Of a stretch of DNA of 64,000 nt, positions 29,874 to 40,435 are shown piece after piece. Below the pieces are notes generated by a model. That model was not told where the DNA came from and did no database searches. It saw nothing but the letters and a program-made list of their open reading frames with translations. Made by a program: the position numbers and the translations under genes. Every line of letters starts with the position of its first letter. Positions within the stretch are counted from its first letter, which is position 1. The stretch is from a virus (lineage: Duplodnaviria; Caudoviricetes), in the IMG/VR virus record IMGVR_UViG_3300017821_000056, positions 32,001 through 96,000 of that record. The stretch is one strand, 5' to 3'.

Positions 29874-30545
29874 GTGAGTCCCATAACGCTCTACGCACGC
29901 GGTGATCTCCTCGCCGTCAGTGCCGTCCCCGGCTGCGAAGCGGGCCACGTGCGCCCCGTAGACGAGCGCACCGGCAAGCCCGTCCCCGTCTGGAGCCTGA
30001 CCTGCGACGCCCACGAGAAGTACTACAGGGGCGACGGGAAGCCGAAGATCCTCAAGTACCAGGTCGACAAGAACACGGGCCGGGTCCTGCGCCAGGAGCG
30101 CGTGGCGGACTCCTCGCCGATGTTCTCCAGCACCCCGGACACCGTGCCGCTCACCCCGGATGAGGAGGCCACGAATGCGATCCGCCAGGAGCGGGGCCGG
30201 ATGCAGATCGAGATGCTCCAGGCTCTCGCGGCGCTCCGCGCGACCGGCATCGAGGTGCCCCCGGAGGCGATGTGGCTGCTGGAGCGGGAGCTTCCCGAGA
30301 AGGTGCTCAAGGGCACCGTGGTGTGCGTCAACGGGCATGACGTCCCGGCGGGGAACCAGTTCTGCGGTTCCTGCGGGGCCTCCATGACCACGCGGGCCGC
30401 AGTGACGGCCGCGCCCGCGCCTGAGCCTGAGATCGACCTGGCCGTCCTGCACCCGCAGAGCCTGAAGAAGCTCCTCCGCGACCGGGGCCTTCCCGACAAG
30501 GGCACCAAGGAGCAGATGATCCGGCGTCTCCGCGAAGCCGCCTAG
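29874..30545 (+). CDS. Zn-ribbon + SAP-domain protein
   Basis: CVNGH...FCGSCG; LKKLLRDRGLPDKGTKEQMIRRL. Confidence 0.75.
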   Translation: MSPITLYARGDLLAVSAVPGCEAGHVRPVDERTGKPVPVWSLTCDAHEKYYRGDGKPKILKYQVDKNTGRVLRQERVADSSPMFSSTPDTVPLTPDEEATNAIRQERGRMQIEMLQALAALRATGIEVPPEAMWLLERELPEKVLKGTVVCVNGHDVPAGNQFCGSCGASMTTRAAVTAAPAPEPEIDLAVLHPQSLKKLLRDRGLPDKGTKEQMIRRLREAA

Positions 30546-30551
30546 GAGCCT

Positions 30552-30743
30552 GTGAGCCGGGGCGCCGGGCTGTGCAAGCGCTGCGGGGGCCCTAAGCGGG
30601 GCCGGAGCGGGCGGGTGGCGTGGCCGGTCGCCCAGTGCTCCCAGTGCGGTGATGAGGTCTGCGCCCGGCATTGCATCTGGGACACCGACCGGTACCTGTG
30701 CACCAAGTGCGCCAAGGCGGCAGGGATCAAGCCTCCGCCGTGA
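30552..30743 (+). CDS. small Zn-finger protein
   Basis: Multiple CxxC; AGGAG RBS. Confidence 0.7.
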   Translation: MSRGAGLCKRCGGPKRGRSGRVAWPVAQCSQCGDEVCARHCIWDTDRYLCTKCAKAAGIKPPP

Positions 30744-30912
30744 CGGGGAAAGGTGCGCCCCGTTCACCAGCTGTTGTAGAAGCGGATCGTCTTGACCTGC
30801 GGGGGGATGGCACGGTCACTCCTGCCGCCTTGCAGGCATTCCAGACTGCCCACATGTCCTGCCATCTTTCATCCGGGGGGACGAACCCGATGACGTGCGT
30901 GGACATGCTCAC
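30727..30912 (-). CDS. hypothetical protein, possibly truncated
   Basis: MSTHVIGFVPPDERWQ; coupled to HTH gene. Confidence 0.5.
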   Translation of the reverse strand: MSMSTHVIGFVPPDERWQDMWAVWNACKAAGVTVPSPRRSRRSASTTAGERGAPFPVTAEA

Positions 30913-31103
30913 GACTGCTCCTTCCCGATCCGGTCGACAGTGGTACGCGCCAGCCCTGTGGACTGGTGGATCTCCTCGATGCTGATGTCCGCCTCAAGGG
31001 CGGCCCGCACTAGCGAGTCACGCTCGGCCTCAAGGCCACGGCGGCGGCGGCCCCAGGAACGGAGCGCGGCCCGCAAGATGGCTGGCTGGTCGGTTGCTTC
31101 CAT
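30909..31103 (-). CDS. small HTH protein, leaderless
   Basis: ISIEEIHQSTGLARTTVDRI; TATGCT-7-ATG. Confidence 0.75.
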   Translation of the reverse strand: MEATDQPAILRAALRSWGRRRRGLEAERDSLVRAALEADISIEEIHQSTGLARTTVDRIGKEQS

Positions 31104-31150
31104 GCAGTAGAGCATACAGCATACGATGCACGGTGCGCTATACTTGAGGC

Positions 31151-32236
31151 ATGAAGACGTGCCTGCTGTGCGCGGAACCGGCCTACGGTCGCGGCTGGTG
31201 CAAGAAGCACTACATGAACTGGTACCGGCACGGAGACCCGGCCTTCGTCACGCCCGAGCGCACCCGTGCGACCTGCACCGAATGCGGAGATCCAGCGATC
31301 GGACGCGGACTGTGCCGCAAGCATTACCTCCGCTGGTACAAGCACGGCGACCCGTCCGTAGTGCTGGACCGCCACCGCAAGCGCGGTCCTGAGACATGCA
31401 GCGAATGCGAACGCCCTGCCGTGTCCTTCGGCTACTGCACCAAGCACTACCGCCGCTTCAAGGTCCACGGCGACCCGTCTGTAGTGGGCAAGGCCGGCAA
31501 CAACGGCAGCCAGCGGAAGTACTCGGTGAACCACGACTACTTTCGGGAGATCGACACCCCCGAGAAGGCTTACTGGCTGGGGTTCATCACCGCTAATGGC
31601 AGCGTGAACGAAGGCCCGAAAAGCTACTGCCTCACGCTGGAACTGAAAAGATCCGACGCAGGCCACCTGCTCAAGTTCGCGGAAGCCATCGGGTCGGACG
31701 CTCCGGTCAGGGAGACCGGCCAGAACTGCTCGGCCACACGGATCCACTCCTGGAGGCTCGTTGAGAGCCTCGTCAGCCTGGGCGTGACCGCGCGCAAGAG
31801 CCTCGTTGTCGAGCCGCCGCTGGCGAGGCTGGCCGGGCTGGAGCGCTACTACTGGCGCGGCCTGTGGGACGGCGACGGCTACATCTCTGATAGGGCCGCG
31901 CGTTCCCGATGGCATATCGGCATCGTAGGCAGCCTCGCCTGCGCAGAGGGATTCGCCGCATGGGCGCGCGCCGCATGCGGCAGCTCAGCCAAGCTCTATA
32001 ACGCCGGCCCGAACCCGAGATGCTGGGCATGGGCAACCGGCGGGACGAGGATGCCGCAACTCCTGGGTGATGCCCTCAGGCAAGCCGGGCCGGGTTTCGG
32101 CCTTGAGCGCAAGCAGATCATGCTGGGAAAGCTCTGCGCCATTGACTTCGGTGAGCATGAGGCCCGGCTGAATGACGGCCGCTCGGCCATGATGCGAGAG
32201 GCCTGGGTTTCCGGCCGCCATCCACGAGCAAGCTAG
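31151..32236 (+). mobile_element. free-standing LAGLIDADG homing endonuclease with three N-terminal Zn repeats
   Basis: AYWLGFITANG and YWRGLWDGDG; TATACT-6-ATG leaderless promoter. Confidence 0.85.
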
Positions 32237-32262
32237 TTACGGCAAGGGGGGTGATGCCCCCT

Positions 32263-33263
32263 ATGTCGACGCCGCTGCCCCTGGGTCTTACTCCGTATAT
32301 ATCTCCTACGACCCTGCTCACGGCGCCGACATTATCGAAATTGGAATTGATTTTAGTTCGATACCTTCGGGCGACTACACCCAGCCTACGGAAAACTGGG
32401 CCGAGTGGTGGAACATGACGGCCAGGGCCACGTCGCGTGTCGACGGCTATTGTTCCCAGGTCTTGCGTGCCACCATCGACACTGAGCCGCTGCACGGCCC
32501 GGACTACCGGGTCACCGTGGGCCCCGCTGCGGGCGGATCGTACCCGACGCCGTACTGGGGGAACTCCGGGGCGCAGAACGCGCGGCTGATCCTGTCCCGG
32601 TGGCCGGTGCTGCAGGTGACGAACGTGGCGACCTGCCCGAACTCGCTGTGGCCAAGGTCGTGGACGAACCTGCCGGCCGGGTACTACGAGCCCGAGGTGC
32701 CCACTCTCGGCGTGTACGGCTCCATCTCCCCGGCCGGGTCCGCTGACGGGGGGCAGGCGATCCTGGTCGGCGGCGGGTACATCGACTGGTCTTACGGGCG
32801 TAACGGGTGGGCGATCCTGGTCACCTATATCAACGGGTGGCCGCACTGCTCCCTCACCTCGGCTGTGGCGGCAGGGGCCACGTCGCTGCCGGTGAACGAC
32901 TGCACCGGGTGGGGGATAACGGACTACAACAGCGTCTTCACCGGGGCGACCGGCCGGATCGTGGACTCGGGCGCCCAGGAAGCCATCCACGTCACGGCCA
33001 CGTCGGCGGCGTCGGGGCCGGGGAACCTGACCCTCTCCTCGCCGCTGAATTTCGCCCACACCGCGCAGACGCTTGTCACTACCTTGCCGGCGTCGATCGA
33101 GCAGGCGTGCATCCTGTTCTGCGTCGCGGAGGCCCTGACGAGGGGGGCGACGACGACGACGATCCATGACATCGGCGGGCACGCGCAGTCCACCGGGGGG
33201 GACGTGGCAGGGCTGACAGCGGAGGCCGAGCTCTTGTGCCATCCGTTCCGCAGAACTGTATAA
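32263..33263 (+). CDS. head-tail adaptor/completion protein split by an 11-nt TTA-led gap (32332-32342)
   Basis: RBS+ATG 32263 gives PYISPTTLLTAPT; other frame continues GIDFSSIP...RATSRVDGYC...Y.NGW...LPASIEQAC. Confidence 0.75.
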
Positions 33264-33304
33264 GTCTCGGTATGGAGTGGCGAGTCATTTTGCTACAGTG
33301 GGGC

Positions 33305-34018
33305 ATGGCAACCTGCACAGCAGCCGATGACTGCGAGAAGCCCCCGTTCCGGCGCGGCTGGTGCTCCATGCACTACTCGCGATGGCAGCGGTACGGCGAC
33401 TTCACCACCGTAAATAAGCCCGGCAACCCTCGGCAACTAGGCGACTGCCACCTCTGCGACAAGCCGGCTCTCGCCCGCGACATGTGCATCAAGCACTACA
33501 CCCGCTGGCAGCGGTACGGCGACCCGACGGTTACGAAGCTAGATCGGGACCGCACGCCAGAGGAGCGCTTCTGGCCGCGCGTCAACAAGGACGGTCCAGT
33601 ATCCGCTCACCGGCCCGACCTCGGCCCGTGCTGGGTGTGGACCGGCGGCCTCGCAGAGGGCTACGGGATGTTCTGGCTCGACGGCCGCAACATCCACGCG
33701 CACATCGTGTCCTTCACTTGGGAGTACGGCGACATCCCCGAAGGCTGGGAGCGCGACCATCTCTGCCGCAACCGTGCATGCGTGCGACCTGACCATCTTG
33801 AAGCCGTAACCCACTGGACAAACGTGGCGCGCGGCATCTCTCCGCACGGGCTGAACGCGGCCAAGACGAAGTGCCGTAACGGCCATGACTTCACGCCGGA
33901 AAACACGCGCGTGAATAGCAAGGGCCAGCGCGTTTGCATCGCCTGCGCTCGCGCAGCATGTTTGCGGTGGTACCACCGTCAGCGCCAGACGGAACCGGTG
34001 GCCGACGCCCTGTTCTAA
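33305..34018 (+). mobile_element. HNH homing endonuclease with Zn repeats
   Basis: RFWPRV, CWVWTG, DHLCRNRACVRPDHL, KTKCRNGH; TACAGT -10. Confidence 0.88.
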
Positions 34019-34030
34019 CGCCCGGAGAAA

Positions 34031-34076
34031 CGGGACGCCCCTTGCGGTCACCCGGAGGCTCCTACGGGGCGTCCCG
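34031..34076. terminator. GC-rich hairpin
   Basis: CGGGACGCCCC / GGGGCGTCCCG. Confidence 0.65.
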
Positions 34077-34129
34077 CCTTCACTACTCCTGTCTCAAGGA
34101 GTGGTACCGATTATGGCAGTCTTGGCAGC

Positions 34130-34495
34130 ATGACAACCATCCGCCTGCGCGGCATCGCCCACCGGGAGACTCCCGGGCGGTCCGGGCTCGACCCGACCAC
34201 CATCGTGCCGGAAACCGTGCCCGTCTACGTTGAGTACGCAGGCACCGCCATCGGCACCGCGGCCCTGCGCCGCGACGACGACGACACGATCTGGGCAGAC
34301 GCCACGGTGGAGGACGGCCCCTGGCGGGAAACCTGCCGGTTCTTCGGCATGTCGTTCCGCTGCGGCCACCTCGCAGAAGTGCCGGGCGCCGGGCTCGGGG
34401 AGGCTATCGCGGTATCGCTCACCGCTTCGGTTCTCAGCAACAAGCTCATCCCCGGCCACCGGCCGCCGTTCGAGGTCGCCGACGACGATTTTTTA
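34130..34495 (+). CDS. hypothetical protein, apparently ending at TTA
   Basis: Acidic domain ending ADDDF-TTA, followed by GGAGG RBS and ATG of a compositionally different protein. Confidence 0.6.
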
Positions 34496-34516
34496 CAGGT
34501 CCCCTGGGAGGCTGCC

Positions 34517-34978
34517 ATGTCCTGCGGGAAGACGGTCACCCGGAGGCAGGCCAAAGCCCGCACCAGTTCCGCCCGCGCACACCAGGCCAGGCGAGCCGCT
34601 ACTCCCTCCGCGAAAGCGGCGAAGGCCCGGTACCGGCAGCAGTCCTACGCCGCGTTCGTCCGCCAGCTGAGGCACTACTACCACGTCCGCCACCTCCAGC
34701 ACGTCGCCCACCAGGCCGCTGCGGCAGCGCAGGCCCCGCACCCGGCTAAGCGCCGGGCCGCCCGCGCAGCAGCCCGGCACGGCGTCACGTCGCGGATCCG
34801 GTGCAAGCAGAAGACCCGCAAGGCCGCGGTCGTCCGCAAGGGGCCGGCGAAGAAGAAGACGGCCCCGGCGAAGTCCAGGGCTGTCAAGGCGGCGGCAGGG
34901 AGAAGGGCAGCCCTTCCCTCTGCCGGGGTGCGCGCGGCACGGTCGGCACGGTCGGCGCGGGCGAGGCGGGGACGTTAG
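34517..34978 (+). CDS. very basic Arg/Lys/Ala-rich protein
   Basis: Own GGAGG RBS; no acidic residues seen in 153 aa. Confidence 0.7.
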   Translation: MSCGKTVTRRQAKARTSSARAHQARRAATPSAKAAKARYRQQSYAAFVRQLRHYYHVRHLQHVAHQAAAAAQAPHPAKRRAARAAARHGVTSRIRCKQKTRKAAVVRKGPAKKKTAPAKSRAVKAAAGRRAALPSAGVRAARSARSARARRGR

Positions 34979-35682
34979 GCAAACCTCGATCGGGCCGGAG
35001 TCGTTGCGAGCGGCAGTCCCGCACGCGCCTTGTCCTCCAAGGCGGCAAGCGTCATGTGCGCTTCCTCTGGCGTGGTGCCCCTGATGTGCACTGACCATCC
35101 GTACATGACCGGCTCCGGGTGGAGCAGGGTGGCTGCGGCATAGCGCGGCTGAATGCTCACCAACGGAGAGCCGGGCAGGTCGGCGCAATCCTCGTACGGG
35201 ACCGTGTGCAGCGCGACCTGATAGCCGCCCTCGTGGAAGCCATCCACCGTGAGCACGGTGCTGATATCGATGACGGGATAGCGTGCCTTGCGGCGCTGCT
35301 GTGGCGGCTTCTGGCCCTTTTCTATGTAGCCGATCAGCGATTTGTCAGGCTTGTACGGCGGCGGTGCTGGCGGTTCGGGCCTCCACTCCCCGAGCCACTC
35401 CTTGCATGAGGCGTGAACGGGCCAGCTGAATATCTCCGCGAGGTCATCCGGGATCATCTGGTCCAGGTCGGTCATCCCGCACACGGGACAGGTCCGGAGC
35501 GTCTCCTCCGTCGCTGCAGAATCGCCTCGCGGGTACGGGCGGGACATGTCGCGCGGGACTCTCGGATCACCTGCCGGTTCTGGCAGCGCGGCCTTGTGCT
35601 GCTGCTGCGCGGGACGCACGAAGCTGCCATAGAAGGTCATCGCCACCGCAAGGAACGCGAGCGTCATCACGAGGAAGCTCAT
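34975..35682 (-). CDS. membrane-anchored hypothetical protein, leaderless
   Basis: N-terminal TM; CPVC..H..C; CACGAT-6-ATG. Confidence 0.7.
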   Translation of the reverse strand: MSFLVMTLAFLAVAMTFYGSFVRPAQQQHKAALPEPAGDPRVPRDMSRPYPRGDSAATEETLRTCPVCGMTDLDQMIPDDLAEIFSWPVHASCKEWLGEWRPEPPAPPPYKPDKSLIGYIEKGQKPPQQRRKARYPVIDISTVLTVDGFHEGGYQVALHTVPYEDCADLPGSPLVSIQPRYAAATLLHPEPVMYGWSVHIRGTTPEEAHMTLAALEDKARAGLPLATTPARSRFA

Positions 35683-36937: not shown

Positions 36938-38329
36938 GTGAGCCTCGGAACGCCGAACATCTATCCGGGTGTGCTCACCTACATGGGCATCGCACGCGAG
37001 CTGACGGCCGGCACGCCGATCGTGCCCGTGATCACCCACCCGCTGAACCAGTCCGAGTTCGAGCCCGAGGACATGCCCCGCTTCCTCGATGACAAGGCCA
37101 TCCGCGGATCGATGACGGACCTGTTCTATAAGACGCTCGGCGTCGAGTCGGCCACGTTCAGCCTGGGCGGCCCCAACTTCCTCGACACCCACGGCTATTT
37201 CTTCGACAACGTGTTCGGGGACCTGTCCACGACGGGCACCGGCGCCCTGAACCCGGCCACGTTCAACTCGGCGCTCGCGGTCGGCGCGACCCAGGGAACC
37301 CTGTCCGCCGTCCCTCCCGCCCAGTACACGGCCGGGGCGGTCCTCCAGATCGGGACCGGGGCGACCACCGAAGTCGTCGTCATCGGCTCCACCGCCGCCT
37401 CCAACGTGGTCAACTTCGCGATCAGCTCGGGCGGGGAAGCGTACCCGCTGCGGTTCACCCACCCGACCGGCCCGACGGTGAGCACGGTCACATCCCCGTA
37501 CACCCACAAGTGGGCCGCCCTCAACTCGGCGCTCGGCTACGGCGGCGCGTACGGGGCGCAGCCCCCCACGCACACCCTGACCGACGTGACGAACCTGGTC
37601 AACACGTTCACCAGCGCCACCTACGGCACCGTCGCCACCTCCACCTACGGGGCGCGGCAGTACCCGAGCGCCGTCCTCAAGGACATCTCGTTCTCCGGGA
37701 ACGCCGAGCAGCTCCTCAACATCCGGATGACCGGCGACTCGTGGCTGTCGGTGATCGCCGGGACCGCCGTCACCAACGTGACGACGAACAGCCGGCCCAT
37801 CCCGAACTGGACCGCCACCGTCGTCCTCGCGGGCAACACGATCAGCAGCAGCAACACCTACAACGGGGTCGGCGAGTTCAACGTCAGCGCCAAGCGCGCC
37901 ACCCAGGTGTACTGGACCGTCCAGGGCACCCAGACCCCGTACATCATCGCCCGCGGCCCGCTGACGATGGACGGCACCATCCAGTTCGACCCGTCGAACT
38001 CCGAGATGCCGCTGGACCTGATGCTGCTGAACAGCCAGGCGCCCCTGAGCATCTCGCTGACCAACGCGAACATCACGAACGCGGGCACCCCGTTCACGCT
38101 GACATTCACGATGTCCCAGGCGGCGATGACCAAGTCCAAGATCATGCGGAACAAGGCTCTCCTGGGCTTCGGGAACACCATGGAAGCCGTTGCTAACTCA
38201 ACGGATACGGGTGGTAGCGGAGGGTTGGGGCCGGGGACGATTACGCTCGTCAACAACACGGCCGTATACGCTCTGTCATCAGATGACTTCGATCTGTATC
38301 TGGCGGCGCGGCACCTGTCGGAGGTCTAG
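36938..38329 (+). CDS. major tail tube protein
   Basis: MGIARELTAGT, YTHKW; precedes chaperone and tape measure. Confidence 0.85.
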   Translation: MSLGTPNIYPGVLTYMGIARELTAGTPIVPVITHPLNQSEFEPEDMPRFLDDKAIRGSMTDLFYKTLGVESATFSLGGPNFLDTHGYFFDNVFGDLSTTGTGALNPATFNSALAVGATQGTLSAVPPAQYTAGAVLQIGTGATTEVVVIGSTAASNVVNFAISSGGEAYPLRFTHPTGPTVSTVTSPYTHKWAALNSALGYGGAYGAQPPTHTLTDVTNLVNTFTSATYGTVATSTYGARQYPSAVLKDISFSGNAEQLLNIRMTGDSWLSVIAGTAVTNVTTNSRPIPNWTATVVLAGNTISSSNTYNGVGEFNVSAKRATQVYWTVQGTQTPYIIARGPLTMDGTIQFDPSNSEMPLDLMLLNSQAPLSISLTNANITNAGTPFTLTFTMSQAAMTKSKIMRNKALLGFGNTMEAVANSTDTGGSGGLGPGTITLVNNTAVYALSSDDFDLYLAARHLSEV

Positions 38330-39069
38330 CCGGCTTCTTGCTGGCGCTTTCGCTCGCGCATGCGCCGCTTGCGTTCTCGGGCAAGTTCTCGGACATGCTC
38401 CTGCTGCTCGGGACTCAGTTCCGAGACCTTCGGGATCAGTCCTTCTGCCTGCCGGCGGCGTTGCTGCTCGCGAGCGCGAGCGCGGCGCTTCTCAAGCTCA
38501 TTGGGCGGCAGGTCGGCCGATGGTGTCCACACCTGCTTGCCTGTCGCTTTCCTCGCGTAGTACTGCTCCAGTCCGCGCTCGCGCTTGCAGGTCAGGCAGA
38601 CCCGGCTCCCCTTGTTGTTGATCATGGTGTTCTCGGGCGTGTACTCATGACCCTGCGGGCACTCGGTGACATTCAACTGCCACGTAGTCCCGTGGCGGTG
38701 CTTGTCTCGCATGTTCTCGGCATGGGTCCCGTAGATCAGGTTGCCGCCAGCGGCCACGGTCTCCGCTTCATCGCCGGGTGCCCAGCGGTTGTTGCCGGGG
38801 TTGCCGTCCAGGTGGCGGACTTCCTGCCCTTCGGGGCAGGGGCCGACGAACGCCTCCATGACGATCTTGTGGACCTGGCGGGGCTTCTGCTTGCCGTCTT
38901 TGGTCAGGGTGACCCAGTGGTATCCGTTCGCCTTGACAATGACGTGCTTGAGGATGCCGCCGCGGGTTGTTGCTCGCGGCTCGCTCCAGACGTCACCCCG
39001 GTCTGATACGCGGTACAGGCCCTCGTAGTCAGGTACCCAGGCCCAGCGTTCGGGCGTAACGTCATCCAT
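38326..39069 (-). mobile_element. NUMOD4-HNH homing endonuclease
   Basis: W..VPDYEGLYRVSDRG; VHKIVMEAFVG; RHLDGN..NN..NL; CPQGHEY. Confidence 0.9.
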
Positions 39070-39153
39070 GTCGGAACCTCTCATCCAGGTTTCGGCCACG
39101 CCCCCGGACGATTTGCACTCGTCGCGGGGGTCTTTTCGTGCCTACATTCTACC
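39070..39153 (-). promoter_or_regulatory. TAGAAT promoter and two-hairpin 5' leader of HNH gene
   Basis: Stems 39070-39096 (covers RBS) and 39101-39130. Confidence 0.6.
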
Positions 39154-39220: not shown

Positions 39221-40435
39221 ATGGCTAGGCTTATGTGGCACTCATGTGCTCCGTGGTCTGCCAGTTTAAAATGCGGATACGGAACCCAGACCGCGATCTG
39301 GACCCGGAAGCTCAAGGAAATGGGCCATGAGGTCCTGATCAGCAATTTCTGGGGACTGCATGGCTGTTCCCTGGAATGGAACGGCATCCCGGTGCTGCCC
39401 GCGTTCGGCGGGTCGTACTGCACCCCGTCGCTCGCCCAGCATGCGAAGCACGCGGACCCGGACCTGATCATCTGCCTGGGTGACATCTGGCCGATGGACC
39501 CGTCGCTGATGGCCGGGCTGCCTTTGGCGCACTGGCTGCCGTCGGACTGCCGGCCGATGTCGATGGCGGACCGGGAGAAGGCGGAGGCGGCGGGGCCGCA
39601 GCTGATCGCGATGTCCCGGTTCGGGGAGGCCCGGTTCCGGGCGGCCGGGTTCCGGGATGTCCGGTACGTGCCGCACGGCATCGACCTGGAGGCGTTCAGG
39701 CCGCCGGAGGACCGGGACGCGCTCCGGAAGGCGGCGGGGCTGGACGGGGCGTTCGTGGTGGGCGCGAACATGGCCAACAATGACGCGATCCGCAAGGCAT
39801 TGCCCGAGATCATGCTGGCGTTCGCCCGGTTCCACTCCGACCATCCGGATGCGCTGCTGGCCCTGCACACGGGGGTGCACCAGGACGGCGGCCAGGACCT
39901 GGAGGCGATCGCGGAGAACCTGGGGATCACGGACCGGTGCAAGGTGGTGGACCAGTACCGGTACACGTCCGGGTTCGTCACCGAGGAGGACCTGCGCGGC
40001 TGGTACGGGACGGTTGACGTGCTGTGCGCGGCGTCGTACGCGGAGGGGTTCGGGCTGCCGATCGTGGAAGCCCAGGCCGTCGGCTGCCCGGTGATCACGA
40101 CGGCGTGCTCGAGCATGGAAGAGCTTAACCCGCTGGGGATCTCGGTGGACGGCTCGCCATTTTGGAATGGCGTCCATCGCGCCTGGTGGGTCCGCCCCGA
40201 CGTCCGCGGGCTTTACGAGGCGTTCTGCCTGGCATACGAAAACCGCGACAGCGTGGACCGGGGGAAGCTGCGGGAGTTCGCGGCCGGCAACTACGAGGTG
40301 GGCCACGTGGCGGAAACGTACATGAAGCCCGTCGTCGATGAGCTTCTGGAAGTTATGGCACAGCGGCGCGGGAAGCGCCCGGAACTACAGGAAGCAGGCG
40401 CGGATGCGGATAACGCTGCCGTCGAAGCAGGCTGA
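39221..40435 (+). CDS. GT-B (family 4-like) glycosyltransferase with 9-nt TTA-led insert
   Basis: GYGTQ, VPHGID, EGFGLPIVEAQAVG. Confidence 0.9.
   Translation: MARLMWHSCAPWSASLKCGYGTQTAIWTRKLKEMGHEVLISNFWGLHGCSLEWNGIPVLPAFGGSYCTPSLAQHAKHADPDLIICLGDIWPMDPSLMAGLPLAHWLPSDCRPMSMADREKAEAAGPQLIAMSRFGEARFRAAGFRDVRYVPHGIDLEAFRPPEDRDALRKAAGLDGAFVVGANMANNDAIRKALPEIMLAFARFHSDHPDALLALHTGVHQDGGQDLEAIAENLGITDRCKVVDQYRYTSGFVTEEDLRGWYGTVDVLCAASYAEGFGLPIVEAQAVGCPVITTACSSMEELNPLGISVDGSPFWNGVHRAWWVRPDVRGLYEAFCLAYENRDSVDRGKLREFAAGNYEVGHVAETYMKPVVDELLEVMAQRRGKRPELQEAGADADNAAVEAG

Follow-up and report, generated by a model that had tools for sequence, protein, structure and literature searches.

Ribosome hopping at hungry codons and at stop codons was reportedly observed in Escherichia coli test constructs by Weiss and colleagues in 1987 and by Gallant and Lindsley in 1998, and Bonocora and colleagues are said to have described, in 2011, the phage T4 MobA/gene 60 element, which joins a homing endonuclease to a 50-nucleotide (nt) bypass. 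In the large terminase gene of Streptomyces phage phiHau3, two 10-nt UUA-led gaps were described (Smith et al. 2013; Antonov et al. 2023, PMC10732093); UUA-led gaps of 10 nt and 7 nt have been proposed in 3 of 100 terminase genes, those of phiHau3 and of the StrepC.1 and S. catenulae prophages, and the phiHau3 bypass was detected by mass spectrometry in E. coli after substitution of UUA by UAA (PMC10732093). In the literature, we found no later paper extending UUA-led bypassing beyond phiHau3 and these two prophages. For T4, the MobA element comprises a diverged homologous region and a bypass cassette, the end of its insert falls at the landing codon, and some copies have lost the endonuclease (Manning & Atkins, bioRxiv 10.1101/2022.08.31.505936). 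Here we analyse a 64,000-nt stretch (the window; coordinates below are window positions) comprising bases 32001-96000 of the complete 128,210-bp virus record IMGVR_UViG_3300017821_000056, a soil phage genome with direct terminal repeats, in which the gene for a likely head-tail adaptor is broken by an 11-nt TTA-led coding gap downstream of a LAGLIDADG-type homing endonuclease gene. We propose, with a probability of about 0.7, that the adaptor is made by UUA-provoked translational bypassing, in which the ribosome would hop over a gap that forms the right end of a mobile endonuclease block.

On our best reading, the locus would belong with the phiHau3-type UUA-led bypass: the kind of mechanism is already published, and the genes, the phage clade, and the link to an endonuclease are new. 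The two systems have in common a short frame-disrupting insert headed by the rare codon UUA, flanks that are contiguous in orthologues, a phage of high guanine-plus-cytosine (GC) content, a proposed landing codon, and, probably, a product needed in few copies. They differ in that the genes here are a head-tail adaptor and a GT4 glycosyltransferase of an uncultured clade of ~130-kb phages, rather than a terminase; in that 61% of alleles are broken here, as compared to 3 of 100 there; in that the gaps here span 4-26 nt, with some led by TAG and some in frame; and in that a homing endonuclease is linked to the gap here and is unreported there. The phiHau3 bypass was studied by experiment, and the present system by sequence comparison.

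The resemblance to T4 MobA/gene 60 is architectural. In both, an endonuclease gene lies directly upstream, a diverged copy of the replaced coding piece is carried along (71% identity here, 67-81% there), the gap sits at the right end of the block, the block ends at the landing triplet, near-identical genomes differ in its presence or absence, and some copies keep the gap after loss of the endonuclease. In contrast to T4, the endonuclease here is of the LAGLIDADG rather than the HNH MobA type, the gap is 11 rather than 50 nt, the codon in the ribosomal aminoacyl (A) site is a rare sense codon rather than UAG, and the host gene is not split into two open reading frames (ORFs) with added extensions. 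Of the T4 gene 60 signals (UAG after GGA, a take-off stem-loop, and a nascent-peptide signal), the stem-loop and the nascent-peptide signal were not found here. The T4 element and this block have no sequence homology; the block would work like the T4 element without being a member of it. As in the E. coli hopping constructs, a peptidyl-tRNA would leave at a slow A-site codon and re-pair a few bases downstream on a cognate or near-cognate triplet (CUU-UAG-CUA there, CCT-TTA-CCC here); those constructs were engineered and of low efficiency, whereas natural genes are proposed to depend on the event here.

Anatomy and alleles of the interrupted adaptor gene

The adaptor gene comprises three features (other alleles of the gene are designated by L numbers):

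32263..32331, + strand: adaptor segment 1, codons 1-23, with candidate take-off codon ACA at 32329-32331 (translation; intact homologues)
32332..32342, + strand: 11-nt coding gap TTATCGAAATT, with TTA 32332-32334 as the putative hungry A-site codon and ATT 32340-32342 as the putative landing triplet (gap absent in 29 intact alleles; homologous gaps in L001 and L117)
32343..33263, + strand: adaptor segment 2, from GGA (Gly24) to TAA, of a likely gp6-like adaptor with inserted beta domains (open frame; homologues; AlphaFold2 model)

The start codon, ATG 32263, is preceded by a G-rich ribosome-binding site, GGGGGGTGA, and lies 26 nt past the end of the LAGLIDADG gene. Translation from this ATG gives the 23 residues MSTPLPLGLTPYISPTTLLTAPT, the last of which is encoded by ACA; the 11 extra bases follow, and coding resumes in a different frame at GGA 32343. 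Read without a shift, the frame continues after ACA as TTA TCG AAA TTG GAA TTG ATT TTA ..., and terminates at TGA 32416-32418. The main frame, open from 32193, reads ..DIIEI-GIDFSSIP.., ends with TAA at 33261-33263, and contains no ATG, GTG or TTG before 32415. Deletion of 32332-32342 in silico fuses APT to GIDF. The GC content is only 45-48% across 32290-32380, as compared to 69% genome-wide (68.7%). The split gene, the TTA-led gap, the frames, and the AT-richness had all been described in an earlier reading of the window (the original prediction), and each was found again here. The codons directly 3' of the gap (32343-32372) are also unusually AT-rich for this genome (GGA ATT GAT TTT AGT TCG ATA); a co-conversion tract and a low structure that eases landing are possibilities.

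A protein search returned 788 adaptor homologues, which fall into two length classes. Members of the 328-331-amino-acid (aa) class start with M[ST]TPLPLGLAPYISPTTLxTAPTG, followed by IDW, and read APT-GID contiguously, as the original prediction had expected; no intact homologue has extra residues at the junction, such as the residues like IIEI that it had raised as a sign of a simple insertion or deletion. Members of the 282-288-aa class, to which approximately half of the database homologues belong, have their start called at an internal Met.

We analysed the junction in 74 distinct alleles, obtained from the DNA of short-class homologues and from loci in viral and metagenome collections. 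The gene is uninterrupted in 29 of the 74 (a tally that includes L058, which has a 9-nt in-frame TTA-led insert) and broken in 45 (61%), in nearly all cases within codons 23-27. The insert is headed by TTA in 41 of the 45 broken alleles, which makes the TTA-led insert a feature far beyond chance, and by TAG in two (L048 and L050); in L051, a TAG lies in frame two codons further along. Inserts are positioned after Thr23 (ACA/ACT), Gly24 (GGT), Ile25 (ATT/ATA) or Asp26 (GAT), and the take-off codons and gaps form 28 distinct combinations, with lengths of 4, 5, 7, 8, 10, 11, 16, 23 and 26 nt. In addition, L117 has a 15-nt in-frame gap, TTAGGGCCGTGAATT, which contains TGA, and L001 has a 23-nt gap composed of TTA, a 15-nt hairpin, and GAATT; the window gap is homologous to both, with a common TTA head and a common RAATT tail. 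The insert TTAGGAC recurs in five alleles on diverged backgrounds. Two alleles, L072 and L074, have two TTA-led gaps in one adaptor gene, reading GAT[TTAGCGGGAC]TGG and then, ~20 nt on, CCC GGT TTA GGG.

In 41 of 44 broken alleles the main frame is complete, with a median of 301 codons from Trp27, equal to that of intact alleles, and the start codons are kept, indicating that both flanks are under selection. A tree of 71 alleles shows the gap state to be scattered (36 changes, as compared to 39 with shuffled labels), so that no single origin can be drawn.

The adaptor protein matched no family in Pfam or PHROGs, a sequence profile search of the PDB returned nothing relevant, and Foldseek found no PDB match at E <= 0.001. 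An AlphaFold2 model of the intact homologue P0011 (mean predicted local distance difference test score, 76) aligns over residues 10-329 with neck and adaptor proteins; these matches have scores barely above the background of such structure searches, Z 7-8, when taken singly:

Phage Mu neck subunit, 5ydn, Z 9.0
DT57C neck, 8hqo_R, Z 8.8
Phage 812 neck, 8q01_b, Z 8.6
Gene transfer agent (GTA) adaptor, 6tba, Z 8.5
HK97 gp6, 3jvo, Z 8.1

Because the hits form a consistent family, and because a distant tblastn match is annotated as a 'head-to-tail adaptor' (Arthrobacter phage Mufasa8), the protein is likely a gp6-like head-tail adaptor with inserted beta domains. Matches in the phage collection reach only ~24% identity, and a scan of genome contigs with the adaptor gave a sole, distant match, on a 4-kb contig of a metagenome-assembled genome. 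A neighbouring 463-aa virion protein had no tblastn match in the phage collection, and no cultured relative of the phage emerged from these tblastn searches.

Proposed take-off and landing, and the alternatives to a hop

In the proposed hop, the ribosome would begin at ATG 32263, read 23 codons, and stall with peptidyl-tRNA-Thr on ACA in the peptidyl (P) site and the very rare codon UUA in the A site. The peptidyl-tRNA would release ACA, the messenger RNA would slide by 11 nt, and the tRNA would re-pair on AUU 32340-32342 through A:U, U.G, and one mismatch. Decoding would restart at GGA, to yield ..LLTAPT-GIDFSSIP.., like the intact homologues. The anatomy, the allele series, and the pairing of take-off and landing triplets described below are direct observations; from these we infer the hop, its efficiency, and a possible regulation through the availability of tRNA-Leu(UAA), of which the gating of virion assembly on UUA starvation, suggested in the original prediction, would be one form.

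The last triplet of the gap pairs with the take-off tRNA at two or more of three positions in all 28 gap types, and at all three positions in 13 of them. In control analyses, shifted registers gave 4-10 of 28, base composition predicted 11.8, and 20000 shuffles of the take-off codons never reached the observed sum. Specifically, GAT is followed by landing on GAC or GGC; ACT on ACC, GCC or GCT; ATA on ATA; GGT on AGC or CGC; ATT on CTC; and ACA on ATT, TCA or CCA. Take-off codons end in U or A, and so pair weakly or by wobble, and landing triplets mostly end in C. In the window, ATT (AUU in the RNA) pairs with tRNA-Thr(UGU) at two of three positions (A:U and U.G), and the gaps of L001 and L117 contain a TGA, so that only landing on ATT would retain Gly24. 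Both observations ease, without removing, the worry in the original prediction that take-off ACA and landing ATT do not match. As for the bypass that it put forward, the contiguous homologues and the 28 independent-looking gap types, with their TTA head and a landing triplet able to re-pair, lend comparative support to the event itself; a mechanism of this kind had already been published for phiHau3.

A short frameshift is the strongest competitor, and we regard it as unlikely. In this scenario, the ribosome stalled at ACA-UUA would slip by +2 (equivalent to -1) onto the first AUU, at 32331-32333, and the remainder of the gap would be translated, to give APT-IEI-GIDF with three extra residues. 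The target frame is indeed open through the window gap (DIIEI-GIDF), and the first AUU has the same sequence as the AUU proposed for landing; the extra residues are found in no intact homologue. Moreover, the net shift required at the one site is +1 in some alleles and +2/-1 in others, and opposite shift directions at one site mean that no single frameshift signal explains the alleles. The gap head is TTAR in 17 of 26 TTA-led types, in which, if +1 is needed, slippage at the stall would at once encounter TAG or TAA, and stops in the target frame lie within the gaps of L001, L046 and L050 (in L117 the stop is in frame), such that the equivalent route is blocked in these four alleles and in most +1 types. 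A programmed -1 or +1 frameshift was rejected on the same mixture of required shifts and target-frame stops and on the lack of a slippery heptamer.

Several points weigh against a hop at this locus. The landing pairing in the window is of the weakest class (two of three positions, with one U.G wobble), and an identical AUU lies only 2 nt past the take-off position, from which the +2 route just described is open. The match between take-off and landing triplets could in part be a by-product of how the inserts originated, that is, inside a codon or through microhomology. The gap types are not phylogenetically independent. One allele with a LAGLIDADG gene upstream, L065, has a 2-nt break (TGG TCT CC ACC) with neither TTA nor a stop there; it may reflect an error, an allele that is dead, or a different shift. 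RNA folding at the window gap is no better than in shuffled sequences (z -0.75 to -1.3; L001 and L002, z +0.1 to +0.3), and the window gap has no internal Shine-Dalgarno sequence. Finally, bldA is the limiting tRNA-Leu(UAA) of Streptomyces hosts, and a corresponding scarcity of tRNA-Leu(UAA) in the host of this phage is assumed.

A second alternative, which we hold to be quite improbable, is that the gene is split (a 51-residue peptide plus a truncated adaptor starting at ATG 32415) or is a pseudogene. Gene callers do start the 282-288-aa products at the internal Met, as this reading would have it. Against it, every broken allele maintains an open main frame, with conservation of the protein sequence, across the 24 codons from the gap to ATG 32415, and the start codon and the 23 codons that follow it are likewise retained. 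A defect in a virion gene present in single copy would have to be accepted for all of the broken alleles, which include complete genomes of 128-135 kb, and this reading explains neither the TTA head nor the landing rule.

Removal of the 11 nt from the RNA before translation, by a micro-intron or by editing, is more improbable still. Most inserts are flanked by short direct repeats, in keeping with such removal. The gaps have no common 3' boundary, except for the tRNA-specific triplet, and they always begin with a signal at the level of codons (TTA or TAG) that is read in frame with the ORF upstream; Rfam detected no family within 30000-35000, and we know of no bacterial splicing system that removes 4-26 nt. 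A group I or group II intron, or an intein, with the LAGLIDADG gene was likewise rejected, on the Rfam result and on the position of the endonuclease as a free-standing ORF upstream of the start codon.

A false frameshift arising from sequencing or assembly, a doubt that accompanied the original prediction, can be set aside: the window is a metagenome assembly, and the only run that contains the whole stretch may be its own source, but the contig of a second assembler for this probable source run reproduces 32100-32600 without any difference (k-mer depth 13), and 45 alleles from many samples, including the five that carry TTAGGAC on diverged backgrounds, have such inserts. The public runs listed as containing the stretch included no RNA run.

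The linked homing endonuclease block

The adaptor gene is flanked by the following genes:

30909..31115, - strand: small ORF, 68 aa, in the inserted block beside the LAGLIDADG gene (tblastn, Pfam)
31151..32236, + strand: free-standing gene for a LAGLIDADG-type homing endonuclease of 361 aa that has three Cys/His repeats at its N terminus (Pfam, PHROGs)
33236..34018, + strand: HNH_3 homing endonuclease gene directly after the adaptor gene (Pfam HNH_3, 3e-11; phrog_826, 6e-44)

The LAGLIDADG gene matches Pfam LAGLIDADG_3 at 25 bits (cut-off 22.5) and the endonuclease family phrog_4645 at 5e-28. In 10 other alleles, a homologue with 35-85% identity precedes the adaptor gene by 6-55 nt. The 68-aa ORF has no Pfam family; by tblastn, L002, L046 and L050 have it beside their LAGLIDADG gene, and L059 has it upstream of the adaptor gene.

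A pair of closely related alleles, L045 and L046, reveals the structure of the block. Their flanks have an identity of 99.5% across 207 nt in the upstream Zn-ribbon gene and of 98.8% across 912 nt in the adaptor gene, and between these flanks lie 73 nt in L045 and 1643 nt in L046. The L046 block consists of a small minus-strand ORF, a LAGLIDADG gene, a ribosome-binding site, its own codons 1-23 of the adaptor gene, and a 26-nt TTA gap. Codons 1-23 of the block match L045 at 49 of 69 nt (71%), with two amino-acid changes, and identity between the alleles resumes at the landing triplet. For the architecture, this comparison is decisive: it indicates that the break arrived with the adjacent selfish endonuclease block. 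The demonstration applies to the L045/L046 pair and not to the window's own lineage, in which, by analogy, a mobile block of the same composition (LAGLIDADG endonuclease, ribosome-binding site, own codons 1-23, and TTA gap) would have replaced the resident 5' end. On the analogy of the T4 MobA/gene 60 element, the gap would probably protect its carrier from cleavage by the block's own endonuclease.

Across the alleles, the gene is broken in 9 of 11 with a LAGLIDADG gene upstream, as compared to 19 of 43 without (Fisher p = 0.04, uncorrected for relatedness). The gap is often present without an endonuclease, for example in L001, the window's closest relative. The association of bypass and endonuclease in one cassette, as originally predicted, is thus borne out by the L045/L046 pair and by this enrichment, and is weakened by the many gaps that lack an endonuclease. 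The relation between gap class and endonuclease lineage appears only loose: the L046 and L050 endonucleases are 85% identical and both accompany a 26-nt gap after Thr, and those of L002 and L049 are 73% identical and accompany gaps of different classes.

Two further observations concern the endonucleases. The adaptor proteins of L104 and L108 are identical over the 300 residues compared (97.3% at the DNA level), and their upstream LAGLIDADG genes have no DNA-level alignment and 42% amino-acid identity, with gaps ATT[TTAGCTC] and GGT[TTACCGC], respectively; the difference suggests rapid exchange of cassettes at one locus. The two endonucleases that flank the window's adaptor gene, LAGLIDADG (31151-31480) and HNH (33300-33560), share N-terminal repeats of the form C..C....G.C..HY.RW...GDP, with 43% identity over 83 aa, and these repeats look like a shuffled DNA-binding module.

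A second interrupted gene and the use of TTA

A GT4 glycosyltransferase gene (39221-40435; Pfam) in the window also has a TTA-led insert and adjoins a homing endonuclease gene:

38326..39099, - strand: NUMOD4 plus HNH_3 homing endonuclease gene, divergent from the GT4 gene (Pfam NUMOD4, 2e-9; HNH_3, 2e-11)
39263..39277, + strand: second TTA-led insert, in the GT4 glycosyltransferase gene (homologues without insert)

The insert itself, at 39266-39274, is 9 nt long and in frame (AGT [TTAAAATGC] GGA), such that the window GT4 reads SAS-LKC-GYG; more than 100 homologues read PWSxS-GYG without the insert. Including the window, 12 of ~40 alleles have a TTA-led insert at this same spot, Ser15|Gly16, and the other 11 inserts are 4-7 nt long:

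AGT[TTAGC], three times
AGT[TTAAAGC]
AGC[TTAATGC]
CCG[TTAGCCG], twice
CCT[TTACCC]
GCT[TTAGCC]
AGT[TTAAGC]
TAT[TTAC]

In 10 of these 12 alleles, the take-off and landing triplets are synonymous codons. At the level of their codons, the GT4 inserts show the same design as the adaptor gaps, with the triplets of a classic hop (CCT-TTA-CCC, GCT-TTA-GCC, AGT-TTA-AGC, and CCG-TTAG-CCG). A screen of the genome based on GC content at third codon positions revealed no clear further TTA-led frame switch; the screen is insensitive, as it also failed to detect the adaptor site.

TTA is the rarest Leu codon genome-wide, with ~15 occurrences in 31,017 codons, or ~0.5 per 1000, a crude count made on an approximate gene set. 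In the ~23,000 adaptor codons of the 74 alleles, no ordinary internal TTA encodes Leu, and TTA occurs only at gap heads and at the usual stop position. ARAGORN detected no tRNA gene in the 128-kb phage genome. In six alleles (L049, L051, L058, L060, L066 and L109), an in-frame TTA stands exactly at the usual stop site, after ..RRT[VI]; in five of these the frame continues for 23-100 codons (in L049, to the contig end), and in L109 a stop follows right after the TTA. The read-on past this TTA may lie antisense to a convergent gene.

Publications on UUA-triggered bypassing cover only three terminase genes, and the experimental support in them is partial. Under the hop proposed here, the present locus would extend it to a virion adaptor and a glycosyltransferase and supply a natural series of 28 + 12 gap types, from which rules can be read: the take-off codon ends in U or A, UUA or UAG occupies the A site, the landing triplet, mostly with a final C, pairs at 2-3 positions, and the gap is 4-26 nt. 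It would also tie short actinophage gaps to homing endonucleases, in a block architecture like that of T4 MobA/gene 60, which suggests that bypass gaps generally arise as self-protection of endonuclease cassettes. For annotation, it would mean that gene callers truncate such genes, as in the homologues annotated from the internal Met.

More tentatively, and with the odds against it, the hosts of this clade may in effect have no assignment for UUA, which would act like a stop or leave the A site empty. 'X-UUA-...-X' would then serve selfish endonuclease cassettes as a portable signal for hopping, with which they could plant protective inserts in the most conserved motifs of essential genes, and UUA would also replace stops at the ends of genes. 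If this were true, the phage proteome would read out a conditional state of the host genetic code.

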